Assembly (NCBI RefSeq): GCF_964355755.1
Contig: NC_092680.1
Coordinates: 15,385,045 to 15,449,044, forward strand
Source: Antedon mediterranea
Taxonomy: Eukaryota; Animalia; Echinodermata
Length of the DNA: 64,000 nucleotides
Direction of reading: 5' to 3'
Shown here: piece by piece, positions 22,701 to 64,000 of the stretch
Layout: each line of letters opens with the position of its first letter
Position numbering within the stretch: the first letter of the stretch is position 1
Position numbers and translations under genes: made by a program
The notes under the pieces: model-generated
The model's database searches: none
The model's input: only the letters and a program-made list of their open reading frames with translations
Told to the model about the DNA's origin: nothing

Positions 22701-25700
22701 TCACAGTCACCAGTGCAGTTAGGTGGACCCCATCTGTGACGTGGGCACTCTGAATAAATTCAATACAAATTACTAATCGATACAAAAGAAAACAACAAAA
22801 GATGAAAGTTAAACAGTAACGCTTTGTTTACTTCCTATTTTCAAAAGATTTCACAATGCTGTTTGTCGTCGTTTAAAATGACAATCATAGCTTTATGTTA
22901 CATCTTTTCCTTCCAAGGTTACATAATTTACCTCGTACAATTAACTTGATAAACGAGTGCCTACGATCTTCCCGGTTACCATCCTCATACATCTCGTAAA
23001 CCCCAGCATCACTGGTCGCCACAGAGCCAAAGGTAACGCTTTTTTCTGCTCCAATCTTAAATACAGAAGAACCATCTTTCCTCCACGCTAGAGAACTGCT
23101 TAATAAAGTATTGAACGTAATTGTAACATTATCTCCTTCATTTACAGTTACTGTGTTTTTAGAATTTCCAGGCGTTATTAAGGCTGTTTATGCAAAAAAA
23201 GAGTTAAAGCAAATTTATATTTCATTTAAATTAATTAAAGTCAAATAGAATACAAGAACCAACAAGTATATGTAATAATGTACAAATAATGAATGTTTAT
23301 GAGTGTAATGGTACAAATAATGGCACGAGGTGAATGATAAAAGGTTATATTTCAACGAGGCGATGAACCGAGTTGAAATATAACCTTTCATCATTCACCA
23401 AGTGCCATTAATTGTACCATTACACGAATACAAAACATTCATTATTTTTTTTATATAACATCTAAATAAATTCTTGTAATTTGAATCAAAGGTTATACAT
23501 ACTGTATATATAATGATCATCAATTTATTATTATTATTGTGTTTCTGTGAATTAAAAATTTGATTATAGAAGTCATCTTATTGTATATAATCGAGTAAAC
23601 TTTGTTAGTGTAACATATGATGATGATACATGAAACCTCATTGTAAAATGTTGAGAGATTAATAATAATTCACAACAAAAACCCACAAAAAGGGGAAAAA
23701 CACAGAAATGTGATAGGCCTTACCATCTTCTCTTATTTTTGTAGTTTGTACAGCAGTGGTGACGCCATTGTTCACTATCTTGCAATAGTATACTCCCATG
23801 CCAAAGACCTCTGTAACATACCACCTACGATCTGCTCCCGACACGTCCCATGCTATTTCACTAACAGCCTCACCATTTGCTACTGCAAATGATCTACCAT
23901 AACTCAAAGTATAACCAGTAAATGCGGTAGGTATGTAGCATTGATAATTCGTATTAGAGTTACTTTGTGGTCCTAAATTCAATACTGTTATATAATCACC
24001 ATTTCCTAGAAGAAAACATAATAACAACATACTGGGTAAAAAATCCAAATATACAAAAAATGTATTATTTAGTAAAAACTATTTCTGTAAGTAGTAACGT
24101 TGTTGGGTTTGGTTCATTTATTTTTTAGTAGAGGGTTATGTATCGATGAAATCATAAATCGTTGGCTATAGTATACACATTTGATTATATCCTTGCTACT
24201 TGAGTTGTTCCGTACATAACTCCAACATGATAGTAATGTCATGTTGAGATTTTTATTTAATAAAGTTCACCTTAAGTTCGTATGCTACTGTGTCTTGTAA
24301 AGCATTTAATTTATTTTTTGCATTCATTAAATAAAAATAATACTTTTATTTGTCGAGAAGAGATTTTGTTGTTTAAATAAACTTCGTCTTGTTGAATATC
24401 AATATTCAACTTAAACTCTCAGCATTATTGTAACTCATAAACATACACTGTTATCTGCTTATCTTTTGTTAAGTTCCCTCAACTTTATTTCATTTCAAAA
24501 GATAATCATTAATTGATTAATAAATAATCTTATTATATGTATGTATTATATATTTAAATTCATACATTTACATTACATGCAAATTGAAAGAACATTAATT
24601 CTAACTCGCCCGGTGATATACTGAAAATATATTATTTTGAAACGATAAGATGAGCAAATCTGTGAGAATGAGAAAAAGTATGATTTATATACAATTTACA
24701 CAGTTTGCAACACAATTGCGACTATTGATTCGAACCCGGAACCTTCTGCTTAATATGCAGATGTCCTAACCATTAGACCACTGAGCCTTTCATGGTTTAG
24801 TTCAAACCCTGAATTGATCAGCACTATAGTCCCTCACCATCGCACACAAGAGATCAAATTGATACGCCCTCATATAGTTTTAATCATTTTATGATAAAAG
24901 CTTTTAATCTGTATTTTGCCAGTTTCAAATGTATTTCCATTTTATATTACTATGGACAATAAAATAATATCAGTATCAGTATTTTCAGTATTTTATTCAC
25001 GAAGCGGAATCTCTGAAGAGATACGTTTATATATAAACATTAGGTCTACAGGCACAGAATAAATTCTAAACCACTCGGTGAAATATTGAAATTTAATTCA
25101 TTAATTTGAAACGATATCAAAAATAAATAAAATAGAATAATAAAAAACTCAATAACTATTTGTTTGTAGAGTATAGCAATATCAATGCGTTCCGTTAACT
25201 CTTCTTTTTAGTGTTTTCCCCTTTTTTTTATTTCTGTTTATTTGCACTATTTGCATACATTGTTTGTATACTTTTAAAAAATAGTTCATAATACATCCTA
25301 CGCTATTACATGGTACATGGACTAGTGTCAAAAGGAGAAGTTATATATAATTCTCTCGACTACAGACCTCTCAATTTGGAAAAATGAAATATCGTAAAGA
25401 TTTTTAAAGCGTATCCAAACTCATGAGGGCGCTAATACACTTTTGAATATTACATCAGCCCATAGAGGGCGGTATTAAAATTAGAATTAGTGTCTATAAT
25501 GTGGTGCCTTAGGGTCAGGATCGTGACATGGATGACAACGTTTTCAAATTGTGGACATTGTTTACTAGGGCATAAAGACTCGAAAAATCACTGTAGCAAA
25601 AACAAAATAAATATTTTCAAAATGGCGGCAAAAAAGGGTATATATCTTGGTAAACGGTAACCAGTTCATGTTAGTGTCAAAATGCTTGGAACATAGACTT

Positions 25701-29978: not shown

Positions 29979-32900
29979 TTAATTTGAATAATATTCAAAG
30001 TGTTTGTAATCGTCATCCCGGTTGATGTTGTTTTTAGAAATCTCTTTCGCTGATCGTTTATTTAGTGTACATGAAACCAAACCGCTGCCGTAGTTGCTAG
30101 GACTGATACTTAAAGATCGGCATTGTTCAGTCTGCTCACATAAGGTAAGACACGTGAGCAAAGACCTAACAGGCAATGCTGAATGGATATACTCAGACAC
30201 GAAGCTTATGTTGTCAAAGAAATGCATCACTCCCTTTAAGCCTGCAAAAGAAGAAATTATTAGAAGATTATTGTAGTCGTCAACAGGTGTGTTAAAGGTG
30301 CCATGGTAGATGTATCAGCAGTGATCTCAACTTGTATTATAATAGTCAGTAATAGCCATGTATGGCAGTAATTACAATTGTTGAAGAGAAACACTAATAC
30401 ATGTTAATGGTCTTATTAATATGCTTATACAACAACCATAAAGTATCCTATGTAACCATTATACTAATAAACTTACCTGTACACTGTAGTGGTCCTATTG
30501 TACTGGTACCATTTTCCGAAAAATGGCCTGTGTCACCATGTCGTAACTGAATCACCGGTAGGGTAGACATATCTTCAATATATCCATCGTCATATCTCAA
30601 AACCTTATCATTTCTGTTACATTCACACATTTCACTTAAATCGCTACAGTCACCTTTTATAAGAATTAGTAAATAAAATAGTATCACAAAATTGTTATTG
30701 GCGTTTGGGCAAAATGCTTTATGTATTGCTTTAGACGTTCATCGGTAAATGCTGATCTGTGATAATCTTTTGTATAGTAGAATTACTTTGAATAATTTTC
30801 AATTTATGTGATTTTTAGGTAGCGGCTTATACATAGACAGGTGTAACATCAAACTAACTACAGGCCATCTGATAAGAACGGAAAATACAGACGAGTAAAA
30901 TATTATGATGATAATTAATGTCAAACTATAGGTTTACCTCTATATCCACATGCGCAACCATAAAAGCCGATTGGACTTCCCCAGTTATACATTTTCGAAC
31001 CATCACGTGAAATCCAAAAACTGACAGGTACACCGATTGAATTAAAGCACTCATACTGTTAGGAAAAAAATTTACGAATATTCTACATTCAAATAAAATA
31101 GCCCAATGATTATGATACAGTATAGCTGCTACTTAATTAATCGTGATGGAATTTCTGTCTACATTTATATCAAATTTGACGAGCCCATATGGACATGATA
31201 ATGTCATAATTTGGCATATCACTGCCATATTTGAGTACATCACACTTATTTTGGTACATCATACTGTCAAACTAGTTTGTCATGAATACAATGACTATAG
31301 ACAGAAATTGACAATACAGTTGTTAATCTATGTCTCTCTCTCTCTTGGTAGTTCCTCCATTTATCATCAGACGAATCCTAACCCAATTCATAAATACCCA
31401 TACAAATAAAATAAATGTAATTGAGGTGGTGTTCATTCATGTTTTCCAATTTAGGATTTTTGATACAAATTTCTAGACATATCCGTTGTAGTAACTTTCT
31501 CTACATGGTGTGCATAGTACCAGCAGCAGAGAAAAATACAGCACAAAATTGTCACTTATAAATTTAGTTAACCATCTTCTACAACAATTTGATGATGGAA
31601 ATAATTCTATTGGCATATTTATAGACTTTATGAAAGCATTCGACACGATTAATCATGAAATATTAATATCTAAACTACAACACTATGGAATAAGAGGTCA
31701 ACCATTATATTGGTTAACCGACTATTTAAAAGGAGGATTTCAATACGTGGCTGCTGACCAAATTAGTTCTGATAAACTCCCAATCTCATGTGGAGTCCCA
31801 CAAGGATCAGTATTGGGTCCAACCCTGTTTCTGATCTACAAAAATGATATTTCTCATTCTAAAAAATGTTTTTGAATTTAGGCTGTTTGCAGATGATACT
31901 AATTTATTTCATGATTTCTCTGGCAATAATATTGATCTCTCTATAATTAATTATAATTTTCAACATGTCATTGAATGGTGCAATGCAAACAAATTAACTA
32001 TTAACGTTGGTAAAACAAAATTATATTGTATTCTGTAACAGGAATAAAAATGTTTCTACTAACGGTAATATATACGTAAAACATAAACAACTTAATGAAG
32101 CAGAAGAAGTAATGTTTGTTGGTGTTAAGATTGATAAACATTTAATCTGAAATATTCATATTAATGATGTTAAAAACAATATTAGAAAGAAGGCAGGCAT
32201 TTTATTTAAACTAAGATATGTTGTACCCACAAATATATTAATCTTATTATATAAAATGTTTATTCAACCAAGTATCACTTATGGCATAGAAGTTTGGGGT
32301 AGCACGTATAAAACATATTTACAACCTATTTGTGTCATTCAAAAAATGTGTATGCGGTGTATAACCTTTTCTGATTTTAATGCTTCGTCATCTCCGATAT
32401 TTAAGCAACTTAATATTTTAGATGTTCATAAACTATACGAATTATGTGTACTTAATTTTGTTTTTGATTTATATAATAGAAACTCTGCACATCAAATCAG
32501 TTATTATTTTAGTACAGTTGATCATTTACGAACTACTAGATTTAAACAAGGTAAAAACCTATCTATCCCAAAAGCCCGTACTATGGCAGGTCAATTTAGA
32601 ATTTCGTTTACTGGCACAAAATTTTGGAATAATTTATCACTCGACATAAAAAATAATACATCAAAAATTAATTTCGTAAAAAATATAACTGAACTACTAT
32701 TATCGAGATACTGATTAATGCTGGCCCACCTCTTTCTTTTTGTCATTATCGTGTGTTTTTTTTTTACATTATTGTATAATTATATTATCAAAATCGTTTG
32801 CACTGAACAGTATTATATTTGTTAATCAGGTGTAAACCATTGACTAGCGAAAGCTATTTGTTTATACCGTTTTGCCTTTGGTGAATAAAGAATTATGAGA

Positions 32901-38305: not shown

Positions 38306-38433
38306 TTGTGAAAACAAAATTGTAGGCCTATTAAAATACTACCGTTTACCATTCTCTATTTGTGTTAAATAATGGTTATCATAAGCTTACATTTTAGTAC
38401 AGTATATTTTCGTGTACGCCTACACGTTTTAAT

Positions 38434-41063
38434 TTACTGGCATGTACATACTTTCCAATTAAACGAACAAACTACAGTCCCGTTATTTCGCGGATTTTCT
38501 GAAAACCGGATTCCAATGTTTCCATTAAGTTCTGTGGTTTTAATTGACCAGTATGTGGTCATACCGCAACATTGGTCAACGATTTCTTCACTAGCAAGCC
38601 CTGTCAGGTACTCTGGTGATATTATGTCCTGTCGTTCGACATTAAACGATGGAAAGTTACCATTGTACAACTGTAGGCAAATAAAATATTAAATAATTAT
38701 AAATATGATTTTAATGACATAACCATAAAATGTAGGCCTATGCATACAATTAGGAAACAAATCTTGCTTAAACATAATGGTAAAAAAACGCAAAATGCCT
38801 AATATAATAGACTTATAGAAGGAAGTAGCTATATTTATTTGTAGATATATTTTAGCAAACTTAAAATGTTCATTATTTGTACTTCCACCTTTGAATATAC
38901 ACACTACAGGTAATTGTGCTAGTGACAAAAGCACGGCCATATTGTTTGGAAAGAAAACACCGTCACAATCAAATTGTACAGAACAAGCTATTGCACAGCA
39001 TAATAGGTTTACATTACGATATTTATACACATAAATTGTCACTAATATGGTTTTAGGAATGACTTATATTTGCAGATATTTAGGTTTGCTAATCGCATGC
39101 ACATTGTGACGTTAACATTATTGTATCTTATTTTGTATGTTTTGCTTTTTGTTATTTTTCTGGTTTTCACACTTGTAATTTTAACAAATACATACCCAGT
39201 CACGATTATGCCAATTCAAGTTCTCGTCTGCCCACAAATAACAAGCGCTGTTTTGGGCGCTGTAAGCCGCAATGATTTTCTAAATTAATAAACATAAAGA
39301 ATAAAGATAAATAATAAAGAGTCTTAATACTTACAATATTATTGACATACATTATTGAACTAGTATTCTTCTTAATTTTTATTTTATGCTTTTAAACATA
39401 TTTCAAAGATATAGTTTAATGTCTTAAGACTCTTACGTGGTAAAAATCAAATATAAGTGTTCCTCCGTCAGTCACATTTGCTATTTGTTCAAATATCACA
39501 ATCTCTACATGGTGGCTGGGGTACGTATATACATCCATTGAGTGTGAGATCCCATCGTCTATATAATCTACGGTTCCACACCATCCAGTTCCCTAAATTT
39601 ACAACAATTACCATTTGTACATTATAGGTATACAAGTAAAAATAAACAGGGGCATATGAATTGCTTATGTAATGCCAGACATGAGCACACCGTGGCTAAA
39701 TAAAGCTATATTGTTAGTTTTAGTTCATTTACTATATAAAAATAATGGTACACATAATGTCATGAGGTGAAACATGAAATTATATTTCACGAGACGAAGC
39801 CTTAGTGAAAAATAATTTTATATTTACCGAAAAAAATTATTTTTACCACTGCATAAATATAAAACACTCAATTATATTGTTTTATATAAAAAATAAGTAT
39901 ATGGATTCTTTTCTTTGCCATTAAAATAAATAGTACGTACTATTGCACGCCATATGACTCACAATTGAAAATATATAATACTGTATATTACACACTATAT
40001 CATGTCAATATTGGCAGAATAAAGCATTTACTCTGCACTCTTAAAATATTATTAAATAATAAACAAAATACAAGTTTCTGTCTTTAAGGTATAACCTATC
40101 TACTAAAGAGCAAACGAAAGATAAACGTTCTAGAGATGTGCTTTGACAATGATTTATAAGAGGATGACCTAATATAATGAATGAACACATTCAGCCTAAT
40201 CCACGTCTTCTAACAAATTCTTTACATAATTATCTACTTACCATCGTAAGCATTATTGCTGTAACCACGCCACAAACTAGGAAAAACAGCACCAAAGAAA
40301 TAACAATTACCTTCTTTTTCAAAGATGCTTTTTTCTTCACGATTGGTTTCTTCTATAAGTATATAATATAATAATGTATTATTTATTAACTTATTTTTTA
40401 TGTCACCTTAAAAATGTTTAAAAGTGGTACTGATTTTTAATATGAGTAACCGGATAAATAATTAGTAATAAAAATAGTAATAGTATTTTCCTATACTATG
40501 AAGGTTTCGATTTTTATAATTTAAAACAAGAACAATGCTTCACATGTACATAAATGAGATTCAATTTTTATGAATTTCCTATTTATTTTTATGAATTTCC
40601 TATCTTATGACATTACAAGAGATTCTGTAGCATCATTTTTGTTATGCTTCACCGCTGTCAAATGTAAATATTTTATAATAACAATATACATTGTTTTCCC
40701 TGAAATTAACCTTAATATTTAGTCAACGATTTTTCTTTTATTTATCAAAAGCATGGATCTTACAGAAGAAAATAAATTCCAACCACACGGCACTTATTTG
40801 ATCGTTTACAGCACTGTGAAACTACATTTTAATATACTATGGTACGTTCGCTTCGCTCGCGTACCATAGGTCGTGCTCACAGATGGTTCTCGAATACACA
40901 GTAATTTCAGCGTTTTTTTGTATATGTGTTAAACAATACGATTTCTGCAGCCTTCTTTTAAAGAGACAGTTTTAAATGAATACCTATAATCCTATACCTC
41001 AATATTTACTTGAGTTTCGTCTACATTTGTCTTCTTTTCTTTCGTAATTGTTTTTGGAAACAT
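38434..41063 (-). CDS. Type II membrane BRICHOS-domain peptide precursor, copy B (about 217 aa)
   Basis: Exons joined by phase-0 introns: 41063-40998 (MFPKTITKEKK..), 40352-40242 (TM VIVISLVLFFLVCGVVTAIMLTM), 39592-39437 (ends GGTLIFDFYH), 39279-39196 (KIIAAYSAQNSACYLW), 38670-38434 (IVDQCCGMTTYW...NPRNNGTVVCSFNWKVCTCQ). All introns are GT-AG and the frame is open. Confidence 0.86.
40835..40915 (-). mobile_element. Helitron 3'-end fragment (same family as 55754-58786)
   Basis: ATGGTACGTTCGCTTCGCTCGCGTACCAT hairpin followed by CACAGATGGTTCTCGAATAC. Confidence 0.7.
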
Positions 41064-41601
41064 TTTGAAATGTAATACAGTCAACTACTGATACTATGGC
41101 GTCATTAAAAACATTATACCAACGGGATTAAGAATAAAACGAGTCAATGGAATTCAATGGGTCATGAGATTTTAGACAATAATTTAGTTTGAATACAATT
41201 TGAAAGTTTGATTGACTGAACACATTAGAAATCACCATAACAATCGATCGTATTCTCTCCACATTGTTGTGCAAACTGTAGATTAAACATCTGAAATGTA
41301 ATGGAAATATGTCCTTTTAAGAGGTGTTAAAAAGCAAAAACTTTTCCTGCTACTGTAATTCTCTGTATCTGTATCCTGCTTAATGGTGGAGACTAATTCT
41401 TATTTCAAATTGAGATTGACTGGTATATATCTGATCGCGTTGGCCCCATGTGTATATAGTATGTTAAAGAACGTAGTACACTATTCGAAGAACACTATTC
41501 AAAGAGTTGGGAATCGTCTCCCCATGTGTACTAAACTTGTAGGCCTTGCAATGCTTTCTGATATGAGTTCGTAGAAGGCCTAGCCCAAATTTCTTCAGTT
41601 T

Positions 41602-41790: not shown

Positions 41791-42288
41791 TAAGGAAAAT
41801 ATTATATACAGTAGCTATAAAATTATAGTAAATATATGACATGAACATAACATTATTAAATGAAAGGGATACCTCTTGTTTAAATGTTGTTTAATGGTAA
41901 AAAAAGGTCTTTACGGAATCAATACACGACATACTTCCTCTACAGAGTGCACAATTGTTTACTTAATTCATATCGACTGTATTCATAATTTATATACAAC
42001 AGAGAATTCATTGGTGTGTAACAAAATAATTTGTGGCAGAAAACTGAATATTCAAACTTTTATCATATTAATTTTAAAAGTTTGAGGTTATGTTTTCACT
42101 CCTTTAAGATTTTTTTTCAATAAAATCTCTCCTAACTTGTGAATCTACTTAATTTTATCAAAATGGTGCTTTAGTTTAAATTATGTTTAAAAATGGTCAT
42201 GGTTTTGTCAACACCAATATTATCAAAATTGTGATTTGGGGCTGCATAAATCTAAATCTGAAAACGTAGCAATGATGCGAAGTTTGTG

Positions 42289-42519
42289 ATGGCGGAGGAG
42301 GATTGTGCCGTGTGTTATGCCAATCTGAACTCTGGTGTTAGGTGGAGTTGTAGTCAATGCAGACTAATACTCCATTTAAAATGCATTGTGCGATGGTGTA
42401 GTACGTCAGATACATGTCCACAATGTAGGCTTGTAATAGCCAACCCATCGAGTATTGATGAGATACAGTTTGCAGAATCCGATAGAGGTTGGATCCGTAC
42501 TTATGATTTCTACACTTGA
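42289..42519 (+). CDS. Small intronless RING-finger protein (C4HC3 ligand pattern), 76 aa
   Basis: CAVC-x11-CSQC-x4-HLKC...W...CPQCR; ATG in good context (GTGATGGCG). May be a retrocopy, a TE-derived or viral fragment, or an isolated exon. Confidence 0.65.
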   Translation: MAEEDCAVCYANLNSGVRWSCSQCRLILHLKCIVRWCSTSDTCPQCRLVIANPSSIDEIQFAESDRGWIRTYDFYT

Positions 42520-44910: not shown

Positions 44911-45892
44911 TTATTTCAATATATTATTCAAACTACATGGATTAGATACTATAATATATTAACATATATAGGCCACAAAAGAGAAAAAAAAATGATTATA
45001 TATATATATGGTCTCAATTATGATCTGTAGGCCTAATATTCAATTTAATAGCAATGATTTATATACCAACTATCTAAGTGACATACATGGCATAACAATT
45101 AAACGTTTAACCATTAAACCTTATTATATGAAGAAAAACAAAATTATGTATAATTATTATACTACAAATTAAACTATTGAGCAAATTTTACATCCAAAAT
45201 GATTTATTACAATAGGTTGCAAATCTAATACATAAAATATGTTTAAATATAATTTGAGGTACTGTGTAGCCAAATTAATTTTTTAACAGATATTATATGA
45301 CGTCATTAGGGTCTAACATACTGATGAGCTTATATATCGCTTGATTTCCTGTTGAAAATTATTTTCTTCATGCATACTTATACAGGATAGATAAGTTATT
45401 GATTTCACCAACTGACCCAAATAATGTTACTGTTTGAAACAGATTTTTCTAAGCATTGACACTGACGGGACAAAACCTTATTTGGTATAACACAACAGAA
45501 CATCTTTCGACTTTTAAAAACTGGCAGCTAGTTTTATTGTACTAATGACTGTAATACTAGTAAAACTTGATAGATCAAGTAAGTCTTAAAACATAACCTT
45601 AAACAATTCTCACTCTTGAGGACGATCAAAGTATATTGATCAAAACGTCGAGAAACTTAACAGTTCTTTCCAGAACTGATGTACGTGGTGTACCGCAAAC
45701 TTTATTTCAACCTTCAAACAATATATAATGCCAATCACTTTAGAATCAGAGTTGTAACATGTTTCATTCTTCCAAGTCAGTGTGTACCGAAAGGCTTGTT
45801 CACATAAAAAAATAATACATTAAATGTTGATATTTTGAAGATTCGCAATCATTTCCTCTGTGGGTCAGGTGACAAACATCATTGGTTAAAAG

Positions 45893-46318
45893 TTATTTTC
45901 TTTTCGCTGCTGCTTCGGCCTCTTTTACACAATCGTGTATTTCCAATATAAGGGCGTACGTATTTGTTACAACGTCAAACCAACCGTCTGTTTTCTTGTG
46001 TGGATTTTTATTGCATCCATGACAAAGTGAAATGATATAGTAATACGTTGGTGATTTTCTTCCAATATAAACATGGGTTCCATCTTCGGCCTTTTTACGA
46101 CAGTACATCTTGACGCATTTTTCTGGAAATGTTACATTTTTTCGTCGTGGAAATTCTTTTTTAACCGCTTTGATCCATTCTTGTTTCCAAGTAGGCCTAC
46201 TCCATTGCTGTACATGACAACTGGTAAATTGTGCGTTTTTTATTTTTTCACCATCAGTTATTATTCGTATGCCATTTACAGATTGGCTAATATTAGCCCC
46301 ACCAGTAGCCATACTCAT
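45893..46318 (-). CDS. Intronless HNH/His-Me-finger-like zinc protein, paralogue 1 (141 aa)
   Basis: TWKQEW...CVKMYC..AEDGTHVY...YYIISLCHGCN...WF; clearly homologous to 48104-48448. Confidence 0.75.
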   Translation of the reverse strand: MSMATGGANISQSVNGIRIITDGEKIKNAQFTSCHVQQWSRPTWKQEWIKAVKKEFPRRKNVTFPEKCVKMYCRKKAEDGTHVYIGRKSPTYYYIISLCHGCNKNPHKKTDGWFDVVTNTYALILEIHDCVKEAEAAAKRK

Positions 46319-48103
46319 TAGTTAGTAGTACACTATTAGAAGATGTAGCAAATGTTCAAACCAACTCACACATCCAAATGGCAAGCAGTACGTTTGTAAT
46401 TAGAATCATCGTCGCGCACAGTTTTTGTATTGTATTGGTTTATACACAACACCATATAAGTACAGTAATACATCGGTTAACATTTATTATATATTTAATA
46501 CCAGCCACTGCCGTGGTACCTTACTCTCAATAACAAAATACCTTAGTAATTATTGCTTATTTATGTATTATATATTTATGCTACTACTGTGATCTACACA
46601 CCTTAAATAATTTAATTCTTAATTGTTATTTGGCTATTTCGGGGGCTACTCTTGTCATACTAGTTCGCTGTGTTACGGATATTTTATGAGACCTGAGTAG
46701 GACCCAGGTGAATTCCACTGAGTGTCGGTAAATTATTAGTACCGAGTAGGCCTACGTGGAATATAATATTTTATTGGGGGCGAGATAATTGTCAAGAATT
46801 ATACCAGCCCAATTGAACGACTAGCTAAGTAGCACCATAATAGTAAGATGGGATGATGATGGGGATGGTTGGGTGGGAAAATAAAATCTGACTGATGCTA
46901 GCGAGTTGCTGTAACATCAATGATACATGTCCAGTTTGTTATACTATGTATAGTGAATCTGATCTATTTGATAGGGACACCTGTTTTTATAAATATGTCG
47001 CCTAGTCTTTTAAGTTTAATTTATTAGTACGGTACCTTGTGTAAAATACCAATTCTCCTTAAAAAGTAGACTTAAAGGAGGCAGTACCAAACCCATCCAT
47101 CAACTGTCACTTGTTGAGGTCACTATAGTATAATTATCTATTGATATTCAATGTCCTTGTAGTGGAGTCCGGGTTACTCCAGATGGTATTGTGTATAAAC
47201 TATAATTTAGTTTCCCAAATTTGCTTTTTAGCAAAGCAAATAAGGGTGTTCGATTCCCACTTGTTCTTACGACATTTTGCGTCAATACCGTCATTGCGTC
47301 ATAGTGTGAACTATGCTTTACTGGTTTGTAATTGCTAAAACAACGTTCACCTTCACCTCCACACGCCGTCTCAAATAATCCACCACCAGATAAGTAAACA
47401 AATATATATCTTACCGTGTGTTCATGAAAAAGAAACTAAGAACAGAAATTCAAGAGACTGTATTCTACCTTTACCATTTTATTTCATTCAGCACAAAAAG
47501 CATAAAATAAGAAAGCAATGTGATTAAACAATAAACATTATTGACAAATGTTAAAGGAATAATATAATCACAATATATTAGGCGGCCAGTAATTATATGA
47601 AAACTATTGTCGGGACTCAAAAGAGTCGCCTGTCAGTGCTATCCCGATCGATGTCTCGACGAGAACCGGTGATTCAACGCCGTATGGCCGTAAGTAATTA
47701 ATTATAAGTTCATAAAGGCTGATTACTGTTTTTAAAATCTGGATGAGGTGAGTTTAAATGATATTTTGAGTGGTGCTTGTAACTTTCTTACACTCGTTTC
47801 AAGATAGTAATTCAGTTTTAAGTTCGTGTTTGATATTTACCGTTCACTTGCATCTCAGGGTGAGGCGTCTCTGGCCGTGTTGAAATGTTAACAGTAAATT
47901 ACTGACTAAACGAAATTGTATGAATGCAATCTAACATTGCAGATAAGTTGAACTGAGACTGAAGTGCATTTGAGCATCGTCAATTGTTAAATTGTGAATT
48001 AAAGGCTTCCTGGATTTAGGCAGTTTTTTACTGCAATTCTACTTTGAGGCTTTTTAACATTATTTTTCTTTGCCTCCTGGTGTTCTTCTTTTTACTTTGC
48101 TTC

Positions 48104-48448
48104 CTACTTCTTTGCTTCTTTCTCCTTCTTCTCTACACATGGATTTTTTGGCACTCTAACAGCTTTTGTCCCGTTGACAACTGGAAACCATTCTTCACGG
48201 CTAACATTGCATTCGTGACAAAGCGGTATGATGAAGTAAGTGCTTTCACCATAACCTTTAACGTAAACGTGAGCTCCATCAGTGGCGGGTTTTGTGCAAC
48301 CAGACCTAGCGCAGTGGTTGGGAAAATCTTCTTTAGTGTATTTGCACCATGTGGCTTTCCAAGTACCTTTAGATGATTCATCACACGAGGAAAATTGTAC
48401 GTTCCTCACTTCTTTATCATTAAGTATTTTTACTTCAAAATCGGCCAT
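48104..48448 (-). CDS. Intronless HNH/His-Me-finger-like zinc protein, paralogue 2 (114 aa)
   Basis: TWKATW...CARSGC..ATDGAHVY...YFIIPLCHECN...WF. Protein motifs are conserved with paralogue 1 despite DNA divergence. Confidence 0.78.
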   Translation of the reverse strand: MADFEVKILNDKEVRNVQFSSCDESSKGTWKATWCKYTKEDFPNHCARSGCTKPATDGAHVYVKGYGESTYFIIPLCHECNVSREEWFPVVNGTKAVRVPKNPCVEKKEKEAKK

Positions 48449-51075: not shown

Positions 51076-52023
51076 TTAGTCATTAACAGAAATTTTGAAA
51101 CGGTAATTCTTCATACATTCTTGTGACTTGAAGATTTTCGGACTTTTTTTATACTTGTCATAAGTCAATATGTTAATTGTAGTGTTATTTGCTACAGCAA
51201 CCATACATGGGTTAATAATACATAACTGATTTGGCACAGTAATTCTATCTTCTTTATTATCAAATCGGTTGATAAAATGTCCATCACTTTTGAATAATTG
51301 TAGTTTGTGGTTACTTGCTATGATAATGTTATCATCTTCATCAACTGCAATTGCATGTGGCCACCTCACCATACCATCTTCATGCCCGTTTTCAACGAGT
51401 GCTTTCAGTTCTTTGTTCGTTTTATCATACATTAATACTTGGTGGTTTCCTTCATCTGTCACAAGTACTTTCCCAGTTTTCGTAAGTGAAACATCCGAGT
51501 ATCCAGAATAATGGGAACATTTCGTCTGTGTTCCTATTATCTCAAGGTGCGCACCACTATCAATATCAAACATATACACACATGACATGCTCAACTCTGC
51601 TACATATATAACATTAGCAGATTCGTCTAAGTGAATACCACATGGTTTTGTTAAAACACCTCTGCCAATTGATTTGATCACATAACCATTCATATTACAT
51701 ACTTGAATACATGCATTTCCACAATCACTGAGTGCTATGTTGCCATTTTTCATTGTATACATCCTGTTTACTTCCATACCTTTTGATAGTGCAATTTTGC
51801 CAATACATTTTCCTGAATATTTGTACTTGTAAATTTCATGTGTTTTGAATGATACCAGCAAGCAATCATCATTATACTTAACTATACCAGTAGGAATGCT
51901 CCTTAGTTTGATAGTAAGAGGTTTGAATGTAATATTTGCAACTCCTCTACGAATACCTCCTTCTTTTCCAATGTTCAGTTTCTCATCTATGTCTCCAAGA
52001 AGATATAAATTGTGGCTATCCAT
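51076..52023 (-). CDS. NHL-repeat beta-propeller protein (TRIM2/3/56/71-like C-terminal domain) with no visible N-terminal RBCC, about 315 aa
   Basis: Repeats PTGIV, PCGIHLD, PHAIAVDEDDNIII, VLVTDEGNHQVLMYD, PNQLCI. The single long exon is preceded by the acceptor TTACAG at about 52028-52033. Confidence 0.8.
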   Translation of the reverse strand: MDSHNLYLLGDIDEKLNIGKEGGIRRGVANITFKPLTIKLRSIPTGIVKYNDDCLLVSFKTHEIYKYKYSGKCIGKIALSKGMEVNRMYTMKNGNIALSDCGNACIQVCNMNGYVIKSIGRGVLTKPCGIHLDESANVIYVAELSMSCVYMFDIDSGAHLEIIGTQTKCSHYSGYSDVSLTKTGKVLVTDEGNHQVLMYDKTNKELKALVENGHEDGMVRWPHAIAVDEDDNIIIASNHKLQLFKSDGHFINRFDNKEDRITVPNQLCIINPCMVAVANNTTINILTYDKYKKSPKIFKSQECMKNYRFKISVND

Positions 52024-52874
52024 AATCCTGTAATAGTAACACATTATGTTACACAGCAGAAAAGTATTTGAATATTCATTTGTGATACAGTAGTAGGTTT
52101 TAAGCCATACCGAAAGCAGAAATACTAACTGAAATGAACGTTTCATATTGTTGATATTCATTTCAAATTGGAAAATCATCAATAAATAATAATATTGTTG
52201 ATAAATAAATTTAGTTTTAACTATTACATTGGAATAGAATCCACTTTAAATAAGCTACACTGTCAGATACTAATACTCAACCATAAGTTACCTTGATTTG
52301 TTGTACCAATTGGAGATTTAATAATACATGCTGATCAATTGTTGTAACAACGCAAACAGTAAGGGAGTTTTCAAATTGTCTGTGGTATTTACCAATGGAC
52401 TCACGGAATGTAGACAGCACTCTAAATGAATTGTATTAAAATGCAAAACAGCCTTCAAGGAAGATCACCTGATTCCGCAGCTATCACCAGATATATTCTA
52501 ACAGACTATTGCAAGGAAGTCACGAGTTTAACAAATAACTTTATGTAATATCTGCCAGTAGATAATGGTATAACGTTAATATGTGTATTTAAATGCACCA
52601 GGAAAAAGACAAGCAGGTTTATCGTTTGTTTTACTGTATAGACTAGTCTATAGGTTCTACACTTAAATCGACATAATATCAGAAAAAAGATAGATATATG
52701 CATACATTGTTTACAGATGATTTATAGATAATATTGTCAAGTCTTGTTAAGTGTTAAGAAGGTTATGCACATTAAAACTTTAATTGTTTGTCTTCTAATT
52801 TTTGTAATTTCAAAGTTTATTTATTGTAATTGTGATTATCTTATACTGTCATTATTGTCAACACTATTTTCTTA

Positions 52875-53395
52875 TTTTTAATTTACTGGCATTACATAAT
52901 TTCCAATGAAACGTGGACTGTAGAGTGCCCTCATAAATGATTTTTCTTTATTAGATTATGAACTATGATTATGACGAGGTCTTCGTGTACTCTGGCGTAC
53001 CAGAAATCTTCTGTTTGGTGGTCGATTAAATGTCACTAATAGATTAATTAAGCACCTGTGCGATTCCTCAATACGTGATATTGATATTGTCTTTGATCGA
53101 CTGTAATATTGTTAAATCTAAAAAACGTTTAAAGCTATTTTGTCATATTTATATATTTATATTGTTTATCAGAACTTAAATTGATTTGAGAAAAAACCCC
53201 AAATATTCTATAAGTCTTGGTTTTCGCGGATTTGCAAAGACAAGTCAAATCCCAATGTTACAATTACGTTCCATTGTTTTAATTGACCAGTTATGTGACG
53301 AACGATTTCTTCACTAGCAAGTTATGTTATGTATTCTGGCGATATTATGTGTTTTCTTTCGACATTAAACGATGGAAAGATACCGTTGAACACAG
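52875..53395 (-). pseudogene. BRICHOS-family terminal exon relic, split by an insertion
   Basis: TTCGACATTAAACGATGGAAAG, GATTTCTTCACTAGCAAG and GTTTTAATTGACCAGT at 53270-53390; TTTAATTTACTGGCAT..TTCCAAT (peptide end, reads GTLQSTFHWKLC) at 52877-52930. Confidence 0.75.
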
Positions 53396-54329
53396 AAAAT
53401 TTCAAAAACATTAATAAATAAAGAAAATTGTTTAATGATCAAGAAAAATACAAAGATAAGGTTTGCGGTAGACCGTGGATTATAGACTATAAATGAAAGG
53501 CCTAGGCCTAATGCTAAGCTTACATTTTAAGGGTAATGTGTACTGTATTTTCTTCAAGATTAAAATCGTAGAGGCCGCGCTACTACAAATTACAATATTA
53601 GTAATAAAACTGTATGACAGGCCTACTTTAGTATTTCAAATAACCTAGCCTAAGATTTGATGATCCGATGATCTGAGTTTTCTATTTCCATTCTAGATCA
53701 TATCTAGATCTAGAAAACTGAGATATATCTGAGATCTAAATTTTCTAGACACCTAGAAAGAATTAATCCTAACATGTTTAGATGTGGCAATGTAATTGAA
53801 TGTGGCAATGTAATTGAAATGATATTGGAGACAAATATCATTATTCGTCTGCCATACAGTACTCACTGCTATGCCTAAACCATAATATATTCTATCCGTC
53901 CCCATTACATCGAATTAAAATACACCAATTATTAAATACGGGATCAACTAAAATATTGTCGAATGTTGCTAATGTATTCATACAATATTGTATTTTGTTT
54001 GTTGAAGCTAACTGATAATTTAAATATGAATTATAGATTTTTGTTATTTCTTTAAGATACGTTAGCTATACGAACTATAATTTATGTCTGGAAGTTGATA
54101 TGTCTTGTTTCTTTCTTTGTTCTTTCAAACCCTTAAAATTGTCGTTATAGAATCTTTAAAAATGTCATAATAAATATCAGCCAATCTTTGAACTACCGAA
54201 ATATTCTCTACCATCAACCTCAACGCATAAACATCCATTATTACTGGTTACTCATTTGAGTCTTCTTCAGTACAAGAAAATGGTTGAAGAGCCAATTTAA
54301 ACACAAATTAGGGAACTTAAACTAATATT

Positions 54330-54555
54330 TTAGGATAAAAGTTAAATTAATAACAACTGAGCCTGTATTGCAAATCAGTTTGTTAGTTCGAATGCCTGTA
54401 ATGTTTGGATTTTGATTCATCGGATCTTTAACATCAATACCGATTGTATTCATAATATAACACCAGAGAGGATTCATTAATGTGCAACGGAACAACTGTG
54501 ATAAAAAAAAAGACCTAGGTCCGGTCCTATTTGGTACTCTGGTGGTATTATATAA
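54330..54555 (-). pseudogene. Divergent BRICHOS terminal-exon relic (frameshifted)
   Basis: Reads IIPPEYQIG, then after a poly-T frameshift LFRCTLMNPLWCYIMNTIG, which aligns to IISPEYLTG...DQCCGMTTYW; homologous to 41655-41750. Confidence 0.55.
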
Positions 54556-54969
54556 ATAGACCCAATGTGCTTGGTAATCATCATAACCAACACCATCATC
54601 ATCATCATCATCACAGTCATCATCACAATATTTAATTCAACACTCATAATCATTCCAGATTCCATAATCTTTATTAAATCAATACGAATACCGTGTGTTG
54701 TGATTATTTTGATCTTAATGTAAAGAAATCGACAATTTTAACATAAATTTTCAGAATTTTAATGTATCACTTTATTATTTGCCTCTGGGTAACAATTCAA
54801 TTTTAATTAGGTTGAAAACTGTAACGATAGAACCACAATAATTATGTAGTCCTTGGCCTATTAAAATTAATACAATTCACCACATTATCTATTTTCTTGA
54901 GTAAAATATAACTATCATAAGCCTACATTTTAGTACAGTATATCTTCTTGTACGCCTACATATTTTAAT

Positions 54970-57900
54970 TTACTGGCATGTACATACTTTCCAATTAAAT
55001 GAGCAAACTACAGTCCCGTTGTCTCGCGTATTTTCTGAAAACCGGATTCCAATGTTTCCATTAAGTTCTGTGGTTTTAATTGACCAGTATGTAGTCATAC
55101 CGCAACATTGGTCAACAATTTCTTCACTAGCAAGCCCTGTCAGGTACTCTGGTGATATTATGTCCTGTCGTTCGACATTAAACGATGGAAAGTTACCATT
55201 GTACAACTGTAGGCAAATAAAATATTAAATAATTATAAATATGATTGTAATGAATGAAATAAAAATTAAATACAATTCTTGGTTATTGGTAAAAAAAATA
55301 TCAAAACTTGGAAACAGGTTTTTCGCCACACCGGGTATACCTAATATGCCACTTATAGAAGGAAGTAGTTAAGGTTGACATATTTTAGCAAACCTTACAT
55401 TTAATTATAATGTTCATTATTCGTACTTCCACCTTTGAATATACACACCACAGTCAATTGTGCTAGTGACAAAAGCACGGCCATATTGTTTGGAAAGAAA
55501 ACACCGTCACAATCAAATTGTACAGGTCCTGTTGTAAACAAATACATACCCAGTCATGGTTATACCAATCCAAGTCCTCGTCTGCCCACAAATAACAAGC
55601 GCTGTTATTGGCACTGTAAGCCGCAATGATTTTCTAAATGAATAAAAATACTAAAAATAATCTGAATACTTGCAATAATACGGTGGTAATTTAATGAACC
55701 ATTGTAATTAATTTTTATTTTAGGCCTTTAAAAATAGTTCAAATTGATGTATACTAGATGGCACGCTCGCTTCGCTCGCGTACCATCTAGGTCGTGCCCA
55801 CAGATGGTTCTCGAATACACAGTATTTCCAGCGAGAAAAAAATGGAGATTTCAAATGTATACGTACCGCAGGACTATAATACATTGTCGTTTACAGAAAC
55901 GAATAAATATACACAATGATTTATGTAGTCAACCAAAATTAGCACCCTGGGAATTACTTCCGAGAGAGAAACAAAATGAGTCAAATTTTTTTATTTGGAC
56001 TCATTTAAACAAACCCAATTTGTGTTTTGTATGTAACATTAAGGGTTGAGGGATGGGGGAAGAAGATAGGTACAAAGAGGAAACATTTTAAAATATATTC
56101 TTATCCACTCAGTAACGAAATATTGTTTTTAATGTTTTATAGGCCTATAAATAATATACCACTAAATACAGTAAAACATTTACGATTTAATACGGTACTT
56201 TGTTAAAACTCTCACTGTCATAGTCGATTGAAATAGTAAAGTACATGTAACGATACACCACTACGACGTTTATATATTTTTAAATTATTAATTAATACAA
56301 ACGTTGAGAAGCAACTGTCAGTAATAACGTTTATTTATTTGTATATTATATGTTTATAATCTAACAGTAGGGCCTACCCACACTCACAGTAATAAAGTTT
56401 ATTTGTATATATTTTTATATTACATCTAACAGTACCAACACTCACAGTAAGAAATTTGCGATTAAAATTGGGATCAAAAGTGGTTAATACCTTAACAGTA
56501 TTGTACAGCATTGCAATACTATTTATGTTTATTCTCCAAGGGGGCCCATAAATCTAAATCTATACCTCTATGGTTAAACCAAATAATGTGGAATGTTTAT
56601 TTGTATATTATATGTTTATAATCTAACAGTAGGGCCTACCCACACTCACAGTAATAAAGTTTATTTGTATATATTTTTATATTACATCTAACAGTACCAA
56701 CACTCACAGTAAGAAATTTGCGATTCAAATTGCGATCAAAAGTGGTTAATACCTTAACAGTATTGTACAGCATTGCAATACTATTTATGTTCATTCTCCA
56801 AGGGGGCCCATAAATCTAAATCTATACCTGTATGGTTAAACCAAATAATTTGGAATGTTCCATTCATCACAAATCAATACATTTGTAAAAACGTATATTA
56901 AATGTATCAAAATAGTATTTTTTAAAGAAAATCGGCCTGTCTTCAACATTATGATGGTGTACTCTAGCTGTTCAACCGGTTTTCAGCCATTAAAAACAAT
57001 TATCGTAGGAGGAGATAGGAAAATGCGAAGCCTCCTCGCATTTTTGTGGCGGGTATTTTTCAAGACGGACATCCATTATACAGTGTATACCACGGTTGGA
57101 AAACACCCCTATTTGGGGCAAATCTTGGAACCTAAATTCGTTTTAACCGTCAATAACTTATTATCTAACTTAATTTAATTAGTAAACAGGGTTACATCAG
57201 GTGGTTAAAATCAGTACCGAAAGTACGAACCAACTTTATATACCATCGAGTAAAAATTATAGAAGTAAGGCGCGATTTACCGAATTTTGCCCTTACGTAA
57301 ATTTATATATAGACTAGATGGTACGCTCGCTTCGCTCGCGTACCATCTAGGTCGTGCCCACAGATGGTTCTCGAATACATAATAATTTCAGCGTTAAAAA
57401 ACTGGCGATTTCAAATGTACGTACCGCAGGACAATAATACATGTCGTTTACAGGAACGAATAAATAGACACTGTGATTTATGTACTGAACTAAAATTACC
57501 ACCCTGGGAATTACTTCCGAAAGAGAAACTTGTCACAAAATGAGACCAATTGTTTAAGTCAAATTTAAACAAACTTAATTTGTGTTTTGTATGTAACGTT
57601 AGGGTTGAGGGATGGGAAAGAGGATGGGTGCAAAGAAGAACAATTTTTAAATATATTCTTTATCCATGTAGTAACGAAATATTAATTGTTTACATGTTTT
57701 ACAAATAATATACCACTAAACACAGTAAAACATTGCGATGTAATACTTTGTTGAAACTATCACCGTCCTAGTCGATTGAAATAGTATAGTACATGTAACG
57801 ATACATCACTACGACGTGTATAATATGTTTATATAATGTAAAACAATTTGTGAAAACCACCCCTATTCGTGGCAAATCATAAATTCGATTTAATCGTCAA

Positions 57901-59498
57901 TAAATATTAAATTATCTAACTCAACTTAATTAGTAGGCCTAATGGTTTTCAATTGTTTCTTAGAGCCAATTCATACTTAAGTTGGTTCCTAACCCTACCC
58001 ACCAAAGTTGTTCTGCGTTTAGAGCATGTGATGCACCGTAGGCCTATCCTCTACTGGCTTTACAACGCTACTCATGCCAGTGAGGGAAGGGTGATGATGT
58101 CACGTGGGTGGTTTAACTGCAATAATAAAGATTTGTACATAATATACGGCGACTGAAAACGCTAGCTCATTATCCGTTAAAAAAAAACTATATCCAACCT
58201 CCGCAGGACAGATTGAAAAAAAAATGGATCGAATTTCTGTTATGAGTATACACATGGACCTCCATGGTATACAGTACTTGCCTTTACGACGCCTGAGGGA
58301 ATAGACACTTGTGGAACAGAGATTGGAATGTTCCATTCATTTCAAATCAATACATTTGCATAAACGTATATTAAATCTATCAAAATAGTATTTTTTAAAG
58401 AAAATCGGCCTGTCTTCAACATTATGATACTGTACTCGAGCTGTTCAACCGGTTTTCAGCTATTAAAAACAATTATCGTAGGAGGAGATAGGAAAATGCG
58501 AAGCCTCCTCGAATTTTTGTGGCGGGTATTTTTCAAGATGGACATCCATTAGACAGTGTATACCACGATCGGAAAACACCCCTATTTGGGGCAAATCGTT
58601 GAACCTAAATTCGTTTTAATCGTCAATAACTAATTATCGAACTCAATTTAATTAGTAAACAGGGTTACATCAGGCGGTTAAAATCAGTACCGAAAGTACC
58701 AACCAACTTTATATACCATCGAGTAAACATTCTAGAAATAACGCGCGATTTACCGAATTTTGCCCTTACGTAAATTTATATATAGATTATACTCATATTA
58801 TAGTCTTACGTTGTAAAAATCAAATATAAGTGTTCCTCCGTCAGTCACATTTTCTATTTGTTCAAATATCACAATCTGTACATGGTGGCTGGGGTACGAA
58901 TATACATCCATTGAGTGCCTTATCCCATCATCTACGACTCCGCACCTAAAGACCCTCTAAATAAAATGATAGTTGCTAATTAATTAGCTTGGATAATAAA
59001 ACGAAATAAAATAAAATATTATTTTTGTTGTTGTTTAGTTCTGTTTAGCTTTTAAAAAACCCTACAGTACATATAGAATTTTACTTAATGTACTAAGGTA
59101 AGGTTGTGTGTCTTTTTTTCACGGTCTACAAACAATTTATTTGTGATATAGGCCTACCATTGTTATACCTCTATGTATATACTTACACGTTCTCGGGTAA
59201 GAACGATTGCTGCAACCACACCGCATATTATGATCAACACCAACGGAATACAGATACCAATTATTTTATTCTTTCGAGAAGTTCGTTTGGTCACGATTAG
59301 TTTCTGAAATGACAATCAAATTCTTAGCCTATCGTTTGCAATACCAACCTAAACTTTACCTACTTGCAGGAAACATACAAACTTCAGATTTCGATTTTAA
59401 AACTACGTGGTTAAGTTAATTAGTAAACGTACCTCAATGTTAACTTGAGTTTCGCTTTCATTTTTCTTCTTTTCGTTCACAATCGTTTTCGGAAACAT
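54970..59498 (-). CDS. Type II membrane BRICHOS-domain peptide precursor, copy C (about 216 aa)
   Basis: Exons joined by phase-0 introns: 59498-59433 (MFPKTIVNEKKK..), 59303-59187 (TM IIGICIPLVLIIICGVVAAIVL), 58956-58810 (ends GGTLIFDFYN), 55633-55550 (KIIAAYSANNSACYLW), 55206-54970 (..DQCCGMTTYW..NTRDNGTVVCSFNWKVCTCQ). Confidence 0.86.
55754..58786 (-). mobile_element. Two non-autonomous Helitrons head-to-tail (55754-57313 and 57314-58786) in intron 3 of BRICHOS copy C
   Basis: On the minus strand each unit starts TCTATATATAAAT and ends with a GCGAGCGAAGCGAGC-containing hairpin plus CTAG. The insertion is at A|T with no TSD, and the junction is CTAG|TC. Confidence 0.85.
56330..56860. repeat. 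Tandem duplication of about 265 bp inside the Helitron
   Basis: TTTATTTGTATATTATATGTTTATAATCTAACAGTAGGGCC...GGTTAAACCAAATAAT occurs twice in succession. Confidence 0.9.
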
Positions 59499-61039
59499 AT
59501 TGACAGCAACACTACTACCATATTACAACATTAATACTATTTAGAGTGAGATAACTCCGGATCAATGGAACTAGTGATTCATGGAATTTCAGACAATCAA
59601 CCATTTGAATAAGTTGAACATTTGTTGACTAACTACGAAAATTACCATAACAATCATTTTCTTTGTTGATATTGTTCTTCAAAACTAAAAAAGGAAATGT
59701 TCTAAGACATTAAAACATACTTTTAAAAATAGGGCTGATTTGCATCTGTCTGTCTGTTTTCCAATGAAATATTATATTTTTTTCTTATTTATAATTATTT
59801 ATTTATTATTATCAAAGTAAAAATGCCAGAGGCTATGATGTTTTTTTATTTTAAAAGCGTATTAGAAGATTTATGTGGTTTACAATCAAAACATTAAATA
59901 AGATACACATATAATAGAATGACAGAATATACATAATCTATAGGCTTGATAGGCCTATATTCAAGCATTATACTCAAACATTACCAATATGTAACGGCTT
60001 AAAAAATTAACATATGTTCGAATCTATATCAAATTTGAATCTATATCAAAGTAGCTAGTTTTCTATCTTTTCTTTTCTATCTGCATGATGGCTAAATATA
60101 TATTCTGATAAGTTTACGCACGCCACGTGATCTGGCGGAGAAGGGATAAAGCGATCGGCAGAGAGCAGCTGAGGTTGTGATATGAGGATCTGATGAGGCT
60201 GGCGCGCAGTAGCAGAATTAACGTGGCATGTTTGGGATAACATTTACCTAGGCTTAGCCTGGGCATTTTATGGCCCACTTTGCAGCCGAAATGAACGGCA
60301 TCCAATGTGCACAAGAATTTGTTTTTGCTATGTCGACATTTCGACACAGCAACGAATAAATTACAAAGTAAAAATGCCGACATATTTTTTAATTTAATTT
60401 GATTTTTGTTTAGTTTTGTCGAAATTTCGACACGCTATACTTATATTAATGTGGCATTAGGCTTTCGTATTATTGCATGTAGCCACCTCACATACCATCT
60501 TCATAAAATGAGATATATTTTCAATTTATTTACTAAATTCGATAGATAAGATATTTAAAAATACTATAATGGAAAACATTAATCCTTTAAATGACTTCAT
60601 GACAAGGTCATATATTAGGAAAACCTAATGCTATATCACCAACTTGTATTTCTTAGATAAAAAATACCACATATTTGTATTAAACATAATTAATAATACA
60701 CTAGTGTATAATTAAAATGGTTTAGGATTACATTTCTACATTTATCAGTGTATATTTAATACAGATATTTATAACATTTGCTTTTACCAACTATTGTTTT
60801 CTTATATGATATTCTTTATTTATAAATACTATGATATGATGTATAGTTAAATAATAATTGATTACTCTATTATATACCAGGATTAACATTTTGGCAAATT
60901 TAAGCCTAATTTAAGCCTAATACAGGTTAAATAAGCAATTGAAGTGACGGTATCTATTATATATATTATATATATATATATATTATATTGTATCTATTGT
61001 ATGGTAACAACAGCGACAAAGCTCATGACGTAAATTTCG

Positions 61040-62795: not shown

Positions 62796-62842
62796 AACCC
62801 CTATAGTACAAATAATATGTTGTAATTTGTTTATTTGTAAGA

Positions 62843-63830
62843 ATGTTATCGCGTGTAGAATTAAGAGGTACTAACTCATTTATATGGTGTACACAACATG
62901 CGATCGGAAAGGGAGCGACTGCTACTGTCTACATTGGTCGAAATAAAGTAAGTAAGCCAAATTTTTCCACTTGTTTATATAAAGTATACATTTCATGACA
63001 CATAATATTCTAAAACTGTTAGGTAAATTCCCGAATCCCGAGAATAATGAAATGACTAATGGGAATTCCCCTTATTAGTCACGCTAATAGAGGGCGCTAT
63101 ATATAAAAATAACTAAACACTATCTCATACAGGCTAGGTTTAGTGCTTATTTAGTGCGGATAAAAAGTGACAAATTTCATTTTAATTTATTGAATTATTT
63201 GCATATAATAGACATAGTTAATCGTGGTACTTTAAGGCTGTACACAATACAAAACAGTGCAAAATCACGACAAAAAAGGTCGCATCATTCTCTTATATTC
63301 AGTACAATATTTAAATAGTATGCAACATGTGATTGATTGGGTCTTGCAAAATTGAATTTGTTTTTTTAGTATCTTATAAAATATAAATCAAATGTTCTCA
63401 ATTCCAACAAGACGTGGAACATAATTAAAAATAGAATACGTTTTTTCCAACTTATCTTTACCCGGCCCGGAAAATCATATAATACTTACGGTACTGAAAG
63501 TGAGAATACTTTCAAACAAAATACTGTATCACTATTATTATTGTTTTTGTTTTCTATAGAAAACTGGCGAGAAAGTAGCAATGAAAGTATTCAACAACTT
63601 ACCACATGTTCGAACACGTGATACACAGATGAGGGAATTAGAAGTCGTTAGAAAACTGAAACATAAAAACATCGTAGACGTGATTGCCATTGAAGAAGAT
63701 CACGTGTCTAAACAACCAGTCATGGTGATGGAACTGTGTCTCGGCGGCTCGTTATTACAGTATCTTGACAAACCGGCAAACAATTACGGCCTGACAGAGG
63801 ACGAGTTTATACGAGCTTTAAAAGATATAA
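62843..63830 (+). CDS. TBK1: TBK1/IKK-epsilon serine/threonine kinase, 5' partial (continues beyond the window)
   Basis: Exon 62843-62947 MLSRVELRGTNSFIWCTQHAIGKGATATVYIGRNK; exon 63560-63830 KTGEKVAMKVFN..RELEVVRKLKHKNIV..IEE..VMELCLGGSL..LDKPANNYGLTEDEF. These motifs are characteristic of the TBK1/IKKe subfamily. Confidence 0.9.
63061..63070. promoter_or_regulatory. Perfect NF-kappaB consensus site GGGAATTCCC in the first intron of the TBK1 coding region
   Basis: Exact palindromic kB site in AT-rich DNA; function untested. Confidence 0.5.
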
Positions 63831-64000
63831 GTAAGTATGAATAGGCCTAATCATTAAAGATGTATTGTTCCCAAAATCAACAAATTAATTAAAAAAAGAC
63901 TTTGAATAGGCAATTTCGCAGTTTTATTAAAGTTACTCACTTTCGTAGAAAAAAATATATAAATAAATGTTTTCACTTGTAAAAAGAAAAAAAAACGGTT

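Follow-up and report, generated by a model that had tools for sequence, protein, structure and literature searches.

Two tandem single-exon genes for predicted His-Me finger nucleases of an unnamed family in an animal genome

In a 64,000-nucleotide stretch of animal DNA, hereafter called the window, we identified two tandem paralogues, ORF1 and ORF2, that are genuine animal genes and belong to an unnamed family of about 100 aa. To judge from the sequence searches, this family is described by no Pfam, NCBIfam or PADLOC model. The best explanation for the pair is that they would be small zinc-stabilised nucleases of an unnamed His-Me finger family, likely acting as intracellular defence effectors, and that their source would be an older pool of eukaryotic genes and not a bacterium directly. 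We put the chance that this combined explanation is right at about even.

Results

The two genes and their genomic setting

Both single-exon ORFs of the original prediction were recovered in the window on host contigs (Table 1), and all six of the motifs that it listed are present in both of them. The coding part of each gene can be taken as a single exon because each ORF covers the entire family domain without a break. The two proteins are 37% identical across 115 aa (BLASTP, E 3e-22), and there is no third copy within the 64-kb window. ORF1 differs by an 8-aa insert ahead of its first Cys, and its tail (pI 9.6), like that of ORF2, is basic.

Table 1. Features of the window, in window coordinates.
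Feature	Position	Strand	Description
ORF1 (P0001)	45893-46318	-	141 aa, single coding exon, faster-evolving paralogue
ORF1 His-Me finger core (predicted)	46010..46117	-	C68, C73, H82, C99, C102 and N103 all present
ORF2 (P0002)	48104-48448	-	114 aa, single coding exon, family-typical
ORF2 His-Me finger core (predicted)	48206..48313	-	C46-x4-C51, G58-A-H60, P75-x-C77-x2-C80-N81
High-copy host repeat	45606..45711		Immediately downstream of ORF1; depth >10,000, many loose ends (runs X1, X7)
TRIM gene	2938-9578	-	RING, B-box, FN3, SPRY
Ig/EGF receptor exons	19744-24078	-	Presumably Tie-like
LINE reverse-transcriptase fragments	31495-32714	+	Broken; within PAN-domain gene region
RING finger ORF	42262-42519	+	Isolated; E 8e-8
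NHL-repeat ORF	51076-52245	-	389 aa stop to stop, single frame, near the pair
First exons of kinase	62816-63844	+	Presumably TBK1/IKK-like
Multi-exon gene family	11000-13050, 38400-41250, 53200-59650	-	Flanks the pair; at least three copies

Each ORF was found on sequencing contigs with host flanks at single-copy depth (45-50). In run X1, one contig crosses ORF2 and both of its flanks with zero differences, and both ORFs are covered by contigs of run X5; runs X6-X9 have small word shares, the X6 matches being short repeats only. In organism C, a second labelled organism, ORF1 is entire in one contig and ORF2 is partial in two. Contamination was therefore ruled out, because contigs at single-copy depth join the ORFs to host flanks and organism C has ORF1 and part of ORF2 too. 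The GC3 of the two ORFs (0.28 and 0.37) can be compared with that of the TRIM exons (0.35-0.36), in a window with a GC content of about 32%. The high-copy host repeat next to ORF1 anchors this gene in host DNA, with no sign that the repeat carries it.

The immune-type neighbourhood was broadly as predicted, with TRIM, RING and NHL ORFs, Ig/EGF exons and a kinase in the window. Judging by its depth in runs X1 and X7, the NHL-repeat ORF seems to exist in several copies. The pair is also flanked by a multi-exon gene family, the exons of which match each other at 60-85%, with no single exon matching Pfam. The motif of this family may be BRICHOS-like, and antimicrobial peptides can arise from precursors of the BRICHOS type.

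An unnamed family of small proteins

A two-sequence profile of the pair, searched against 1.84 billion representatives, retrieved 267 at E<=0.001, 10 at 1e-10 and zero at 1e-30; the best E was 7e-16, and there was no close animal orthologue. When the pair was aligned with 104 of the best 150 of these 267 relatives (88-145 aa, two partial rows excluded), the result was the pattern N-x-x-G-[TS]..W-x3-W..P-x2-C-x4-C-x3-A-x-x-G-[AG]-H..[YF]-I-x-P-x-C-x2-[CH]-N over 106 rows. In ORF2 numbering, the most conserved columns are C77 (106/106), C46, C51 and H60 (105 each), P75 (104), G58 (103), N81 (102, with His instead in three) and C/H80 (99). The original prediction had read the concentration of shared residues at the motifs as a sign of selection; the shared residues are indeed family-invariant columns, but purifying selection was not seen for ORF1 between close species, as described below.

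Neither ORF has a match in Pfam or NCBIfam, the PADLOC models (2023 library) matched none of 14 family members (best E 0.02), and a word-indexed search with ORF2 alone returned nothing. PHROGs gave HNH only, at E 0.019, and the six weak rows from a sequence search of the PDB include an HNH nuclease (E 0.22). No description of the family was found in the literature, although subscription journals and the supplement of PMC5714182 could contain one.

Among the 30 representatives for which organism names were sought, together with the loci collected from sequence data, the named prokaryotic members include a Brevibacillus plasmid protein, Chromobacterium and 31 bacterial loci, in addition to three viral contigs; bacterial and viral clusters are also present in a sequence atlas at 0.95-0.96. 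The small prokaryotic and viral hypothetical relatives that had been anticipated thus exist, at the same size as the pair. The named eukaryotic members are a EukProt protein, which is the top match, an MMETSP transcript, and proteins of the octocorals Dendronephthya (two) and Paramuricea. In bacteria the family is rare: it was found in 2 of 400 genomes beyond the seed in one phylum sample (one being a DUF968 protein and one a split gene) and in 3 of 400 in another.

Many relatives end in a CaaX-like C-terminus, where the window pair has its basic tails, namely 11 of the best 150 by pattern (one doubtful) and 8 of 14 in another relative set (P0015, P0028, P0037, P0042, P0047, P0097, P0110, P0113, P0120, P0139 and P0163-P0175). 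The occurrence of these endings across several clades suggests that prenyl anchoring may have arisen repeatedly in eukaryotes. P0012, from a 388-nt contig labelled Salmonella sp., clusters with eukaryote-side rows, and its label is doubtful.

Predicted fold

The original prediction of an HNH (beta-beta-alpha-Me) protein was supported by the profiles of three His-Me families, a predicted core and weak HNH fold matches. The AlphaFold2 model of ORF2 (pLDDT 94) has strands at 57-63 and 70-76 and a helix at 78-82, forming a beta-beta-alpha core, and a 64-residue core model has the same topology. By hhalign, the family aligned with the C-terminus of DUF968 at 93% (E 3e-7), with Pfam HNH at E 0.003 and with HNH_2 at E 0.002, the HNH-family alignments being built within the analysis and DUF968 being selected for comparison after its match had appeared. 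In all three, His60 is matched to the catalytic His, and the start of the helix is aligned with C77-x2-C80-N81. A control, the DksA zinc finger, gave E 0.47. When columns were shuffled, the three HNH scores were reached in 0 of 40 trials and the control score in 14 of 40.

In a comparison of the core model with 48,161 chains by VIA, there were 22 matches at Z>=2, of which eight were HNH-bearing nucleases (Z 2.0-3.4): two IscB, the GVE2 HNH, Cap5, two Cas9, the type I-E HNH Cascade and TagI. In the nucleases other than IscB 9nvu, the matched ranges are presumably the HNH domains. Treble-clef zinc fingers that are not nucleases account for many of the remaining matches. The best match was IscB 9nvu (Z 3.4, rmsd 4.1, 59 residues aligned), and the whole model also matched its residues 325-399 (Z 2.5, rank 2 of 7), a range with the catalytic H375 and a C4 zinc finger (PMC13180657, available in part). 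All Z values were below 3.5, a range that the tool grades as inconclusive, and Foldseek returned nothing at E<=0.001 for the whole model in the PDB and viral sets and no match for the core model, and a second VIA comparison likewise gave none; on this account, structure on its own leaves the fold undecided. Taken together, the profiles, the predicted core and the weak fold matches make it very probable that the pair adopts a His-Me/HNH fold.

The family nevertheless stands apart from the described groups. DUF968 is His-Me group 7 in the available part of PMC5714182, and DUF968/YdfU and DUF1364/YbcO (group 7) share with the family the C..C knuckle, the A-x-D-x-x-H strand and the (F/Y)-x-I-P-L-C-x-x-C helix in register. 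DUF968 itself is prophage-borne, carries C-x2-C and, ahead of the loop, H-H, and combines a long helix with an extensive N-terminal part. The family instead shows G-A-H and C-x4-C, has strands after a helix of only five residues, bears the motif N-x-x-G-T..W-x3-W near its N-terminus and counts many eukaryotic proteins among its members. Only 3 of the 106 members match DUF968 (best E 0.009), and with the GAH motif and different neighbours the family does not fall into group 7. A core predicted to be beta-beta-alpha, with a zinc knuckle, a His base and an Asn metal ligand, is likewise common to the pair, PF01844, PF13391 and the HNH domains of IscB, Cas9, Cap5, TagI and the GVE2 nuclease, but in the pair D/E/H is absent ahead of the His, the loop holds no conserved Asn, and there is no sensor or guide domain. 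Assignment to the canonical HNH group 1 (PF01844) found no support either, with no Pfam match for the ORFs and a weak one in 2 of the 106 members.

Putative active site and tandem-domain relatives

The near-invariant His60 (105/106) is located at the end of strand 1, and the metal-ligand position in the first helix turn is filled by Asn81 (102/106) or His (3/106). According to the available part of PMC5714182, an Asn or His at this position is the defining metal ligand of His-Me fingers, and the helix Asn is often the sole direct one. The site is otherwise sparse: Ala, Gly or Ser (Thr in ORF1) precedes His60, with no acidic residue or His there, the helix is short, and there is neither a conserved loop Asn nor a conserved polar residue at helix +4.

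Eleven tandem-domain relatives (nine distinct proteins from about six separate clades in the 199-row tree) provided 24 domains. The four zinc ligands are kept in all 24, the His in 16 and the Asn in 13, and in every tandem protein the His and the Asn occur together in one domain and no more. In single-domain relatives, a set chosen by profile and hence biased toward retention, the His is kept in 195 of 196 and the Asn in 194 of 196. The tandem pattern arises even though profile selection favours two intact copies; it therefore argues that His60 and Asn81 would be the catalytic residues and that a dimer could work with one site. On these sequence grounds, we predict that the pair are active nucleases, and consider this probable.

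It is quite unlikely, in our estimation, that the pair are instead treble-clef zinc fingers that bind nucleic acid or protein and do not cut. The minimal metal site and the many non-catalytic zinc fingers among the fold matches would suit such a role, and inactive His-Me fingers exist, such as Smad MH1 (PMC5714182, available in part), but the retention of His and Asn in the profile-selected single domains, with joint loss only in spare copies of tandem proteins, speaks against it.

Sequence change in ORF1 and ORF2

A count of substitutions between the window and organism C on the ORF1 stretch comprised 33 listed coding changes, about 30 nonsynonymous and three synonymous, out of 39 differences (two beside gaps, one in the stop and three unseen being omitted). 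This corresponds to a pN/pS of about 2.5 (p 0.09 against neutrality), which would drop to about 1.3 if the three unseen differences were all synonymous. The zinc ligands, the His and the Asn are unchanged, which is compatible with chance (p 0.14). Internal indels of 3, 6, 3 and 9 nt were in frame in 4 of 4 cases, compared with 3 of 12 listed non-coding indels (p 0.02), in a test that treats a 1+2 gap as one event and omits, besides a 4-nt gap at the first ATG, two gaps of 1 nt each that lie in the final codons of the extra copy. This copy is a second, diverged ORF1 version in one sample, where its half depth comes in addition to the full depth, and is likely an extra copy on one haplotype. The ORF1 allele of the window carries Ser97 in place of the Pro found in the family, in another sample and in organism C, and Thr81 in place of the Ala of organism C; both residues depart from the family, and the lost Pro is near-invariant.

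In ORF2, the listed coding differences numbered only two. Between ORF1 and ORF2, four-fold sites are identical at 7 of 13, and the dN/dS of the paralogues is unusable because third positions are near saturation. The rapid change of ORF1, with its kept frame and copy-number variation, fits a defence gene, and the data leave room for relaxed constraint as an alternative.

We consider it very unlikely that the pair is the cargo or relic of a mobile element, with ORF1 in decay. Its intronless genes, a pN/pS not different from 1 and the Pro97Ser and Ala81Thr changes in the window allele of ORF1 would agree with such a relic, and KolobokP transposons of marine invertebrates do carry His-Me nucleases, a His-Me finger gene in a genome of the marine-invertebrate type being common to both (PMC9587614, available in part). 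KolobokP, however, has its own features, namely eight His/Cys ligands, a DDE transposase and long terminal direct repeats (same source), none of which was found in or around the pair. Transposon cargo was thus rejected on the grounds that there is neither a transposase ORF nor long terminal repeats around the pair and that the depth is near single copy; moreover, four zinc ligands stand against an eight-ligand His-Cys box, and the internal indels preserve the frame. No match to a known transposable-element protein was found, and the pair is not a known transposon protein.

Gene context of bacterial relatives

Of 34 prokaryotic loci, 30 were scanned (four near-duplicates omitted) for up to five nearest ORFs, giving 126 proteins, a subset of which was compared with PADLOC. 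Defence-type neighbours were present at 18 of the 30 loci and absent at 12, as a raw count without background for which one narrow search pattern was used and which related Bacteroidales inflate (AAA_21 loci make up 8 of the 18). They comprise type I RM (3), type II RM, AAA_21 with or without RloB (AbiL-like, 8), TIR/SLOG with PD-Lambda-4B, PDC-S01-like (2), PDC-S31, PDC-S33-like, and a patatin with a metallo-hydrolase. None of the 126 proteins was MazG, the link of the bacterial group 23 in the available part of PMC5714182.

Other arrangements were observed at individual loci. The domain is C-terminal in longer bacterial proteins without a Pfam family (L034:4090-6234, L050:1480-2412 and, split, L045:678-1665), an arrangement that looks toxin-like or effector-like from its sequence. 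DUF2188 (PADLOC PDC-S16) directly adjoins the family gene in four Bacteroidales loci (L011, L014, L017 and L023), and a functional pairing of the two is possible. At L006:1353-2468, a HECT-domain ORF adjoins a bacterial family member on a MAG contig.

The pair could also be His-Me nucleases with a non-immune job, such as DNA repair, recombination or nucleic-acid turnover, beside which the immune-type neighbours would be incidental; we regard this as unlikely. DUF968, the closest profile, has a hypothesised role in phage recombination (PMC5714182, available in part). The 12 loci without defence neighbours would also fit. Nevertheless, the family is rare, patchy, copy-variable and fast-evolving, and housekeeping genes are not usually so.

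Origin of the pair

An IQ-TREE analysis was performed with 58 rows (named prokaryotes, named eukaryotes, CaaX-ending proteins and top matches) and 106 columns. In the best tree, the 18 named prokaryotic and viral rows lie on one side of a branch (93/86) with the pair outside; ORF1 and ORF2 are sisters (93/46) within a 17-row group that holds the EukProt and MMETSP rows (92/75), apart from the octocoral rows. The AU test rejected neither a grouping of the pair with prokaryotes (p 0.30) nor one with octocorals (p 0.23), and a 199-row FastTree did not resolve the placement of the pair.

The nearest relatives had been expected to be bacterial or viral, which did not hold, as the top match is the EukProt protein and octocorals and an MMETSP transcript are among the named relatives. 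Lateral acquisition directly from bacteria is likewise unsupported because the top match is eukaryotic and the best tree sets the pair apart from the named prokaryotes, although the AU test leaves the prokaryote grouping standing. A scenario in which the gene passed directly from a bacterium or phage to this animal lineage and then duplicated in tandem thus appears improbable to us: the intronless genes, the same-size bacterial and viral homologues and the absence of a close animal orthologue among the representatives searched would be in line with it, but the codon GC also agrees with the host. Between an ancient entry into eukaryotes, inheritance accompanied by many losses, and transfer from a protist to an animal, no distinction can be made here.

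Discussion

In the mechanism that we propose for the pair, C46, C51, C77 and C80 would hold a structural zinc, as their invariance and the C-to-H exchange suggest. From the register with HNH families, His60 at the end of strand 1 would activate water, and one divalent metal would be bound by Asn81, which lies in the first turn of the helix. DNA or RNA would be nicked or degraded with little sequence preference, given that no specificity domain is present, and the proteins would likely form a dimer for which one active site is enough, as in the tandem fusions. Action inside the cell is likely because neither N-terminus has a hydrophobic signal stretch. There, the proteins could cut invader nucleic acid or kill the infected cell; a defence role has in our view an even chance of being correct. 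The suggestion that the proteins are toxins found no direct support.

OLD-like, Tiamat and amoeba TirBCD resemble the family in being rare in prokaryotes and present in protists and marine invertebrates with an uncertain transfer history (10.64898/2026.08.18.745644, 10.64898/2026.09.30.754977, PMC13142454, each available in part). Bacterial defence activity was tested for those systems, as far as the available parts of these sources describe, whereas the present family is known from sequence alone and is unrelated to them in sequence.

A further possibility, which we raise only tentatively, is that this is an undescribed bacterial family of single-gene anti-phage nucleases that entered eukaryotes early and spread via protists, corals and this invertebrate, that it was repeatedly rebuilt as tandem dimers with one active site or as membrane-anchored CaaX forms, and that it may now serve animal innate immunity as a fast-evolving antiviral effector. 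If the preferred reading of the pair as defence nucleases is true, the family would represent a new group of His-Me fingers with an unusually sparse active site, and a stand-alone nuclease of about 100 residues, found alike in the defence islands of bacteria, in protists and in invertebrates, would connect anti-phage defence with animal innate immunity in a new way.
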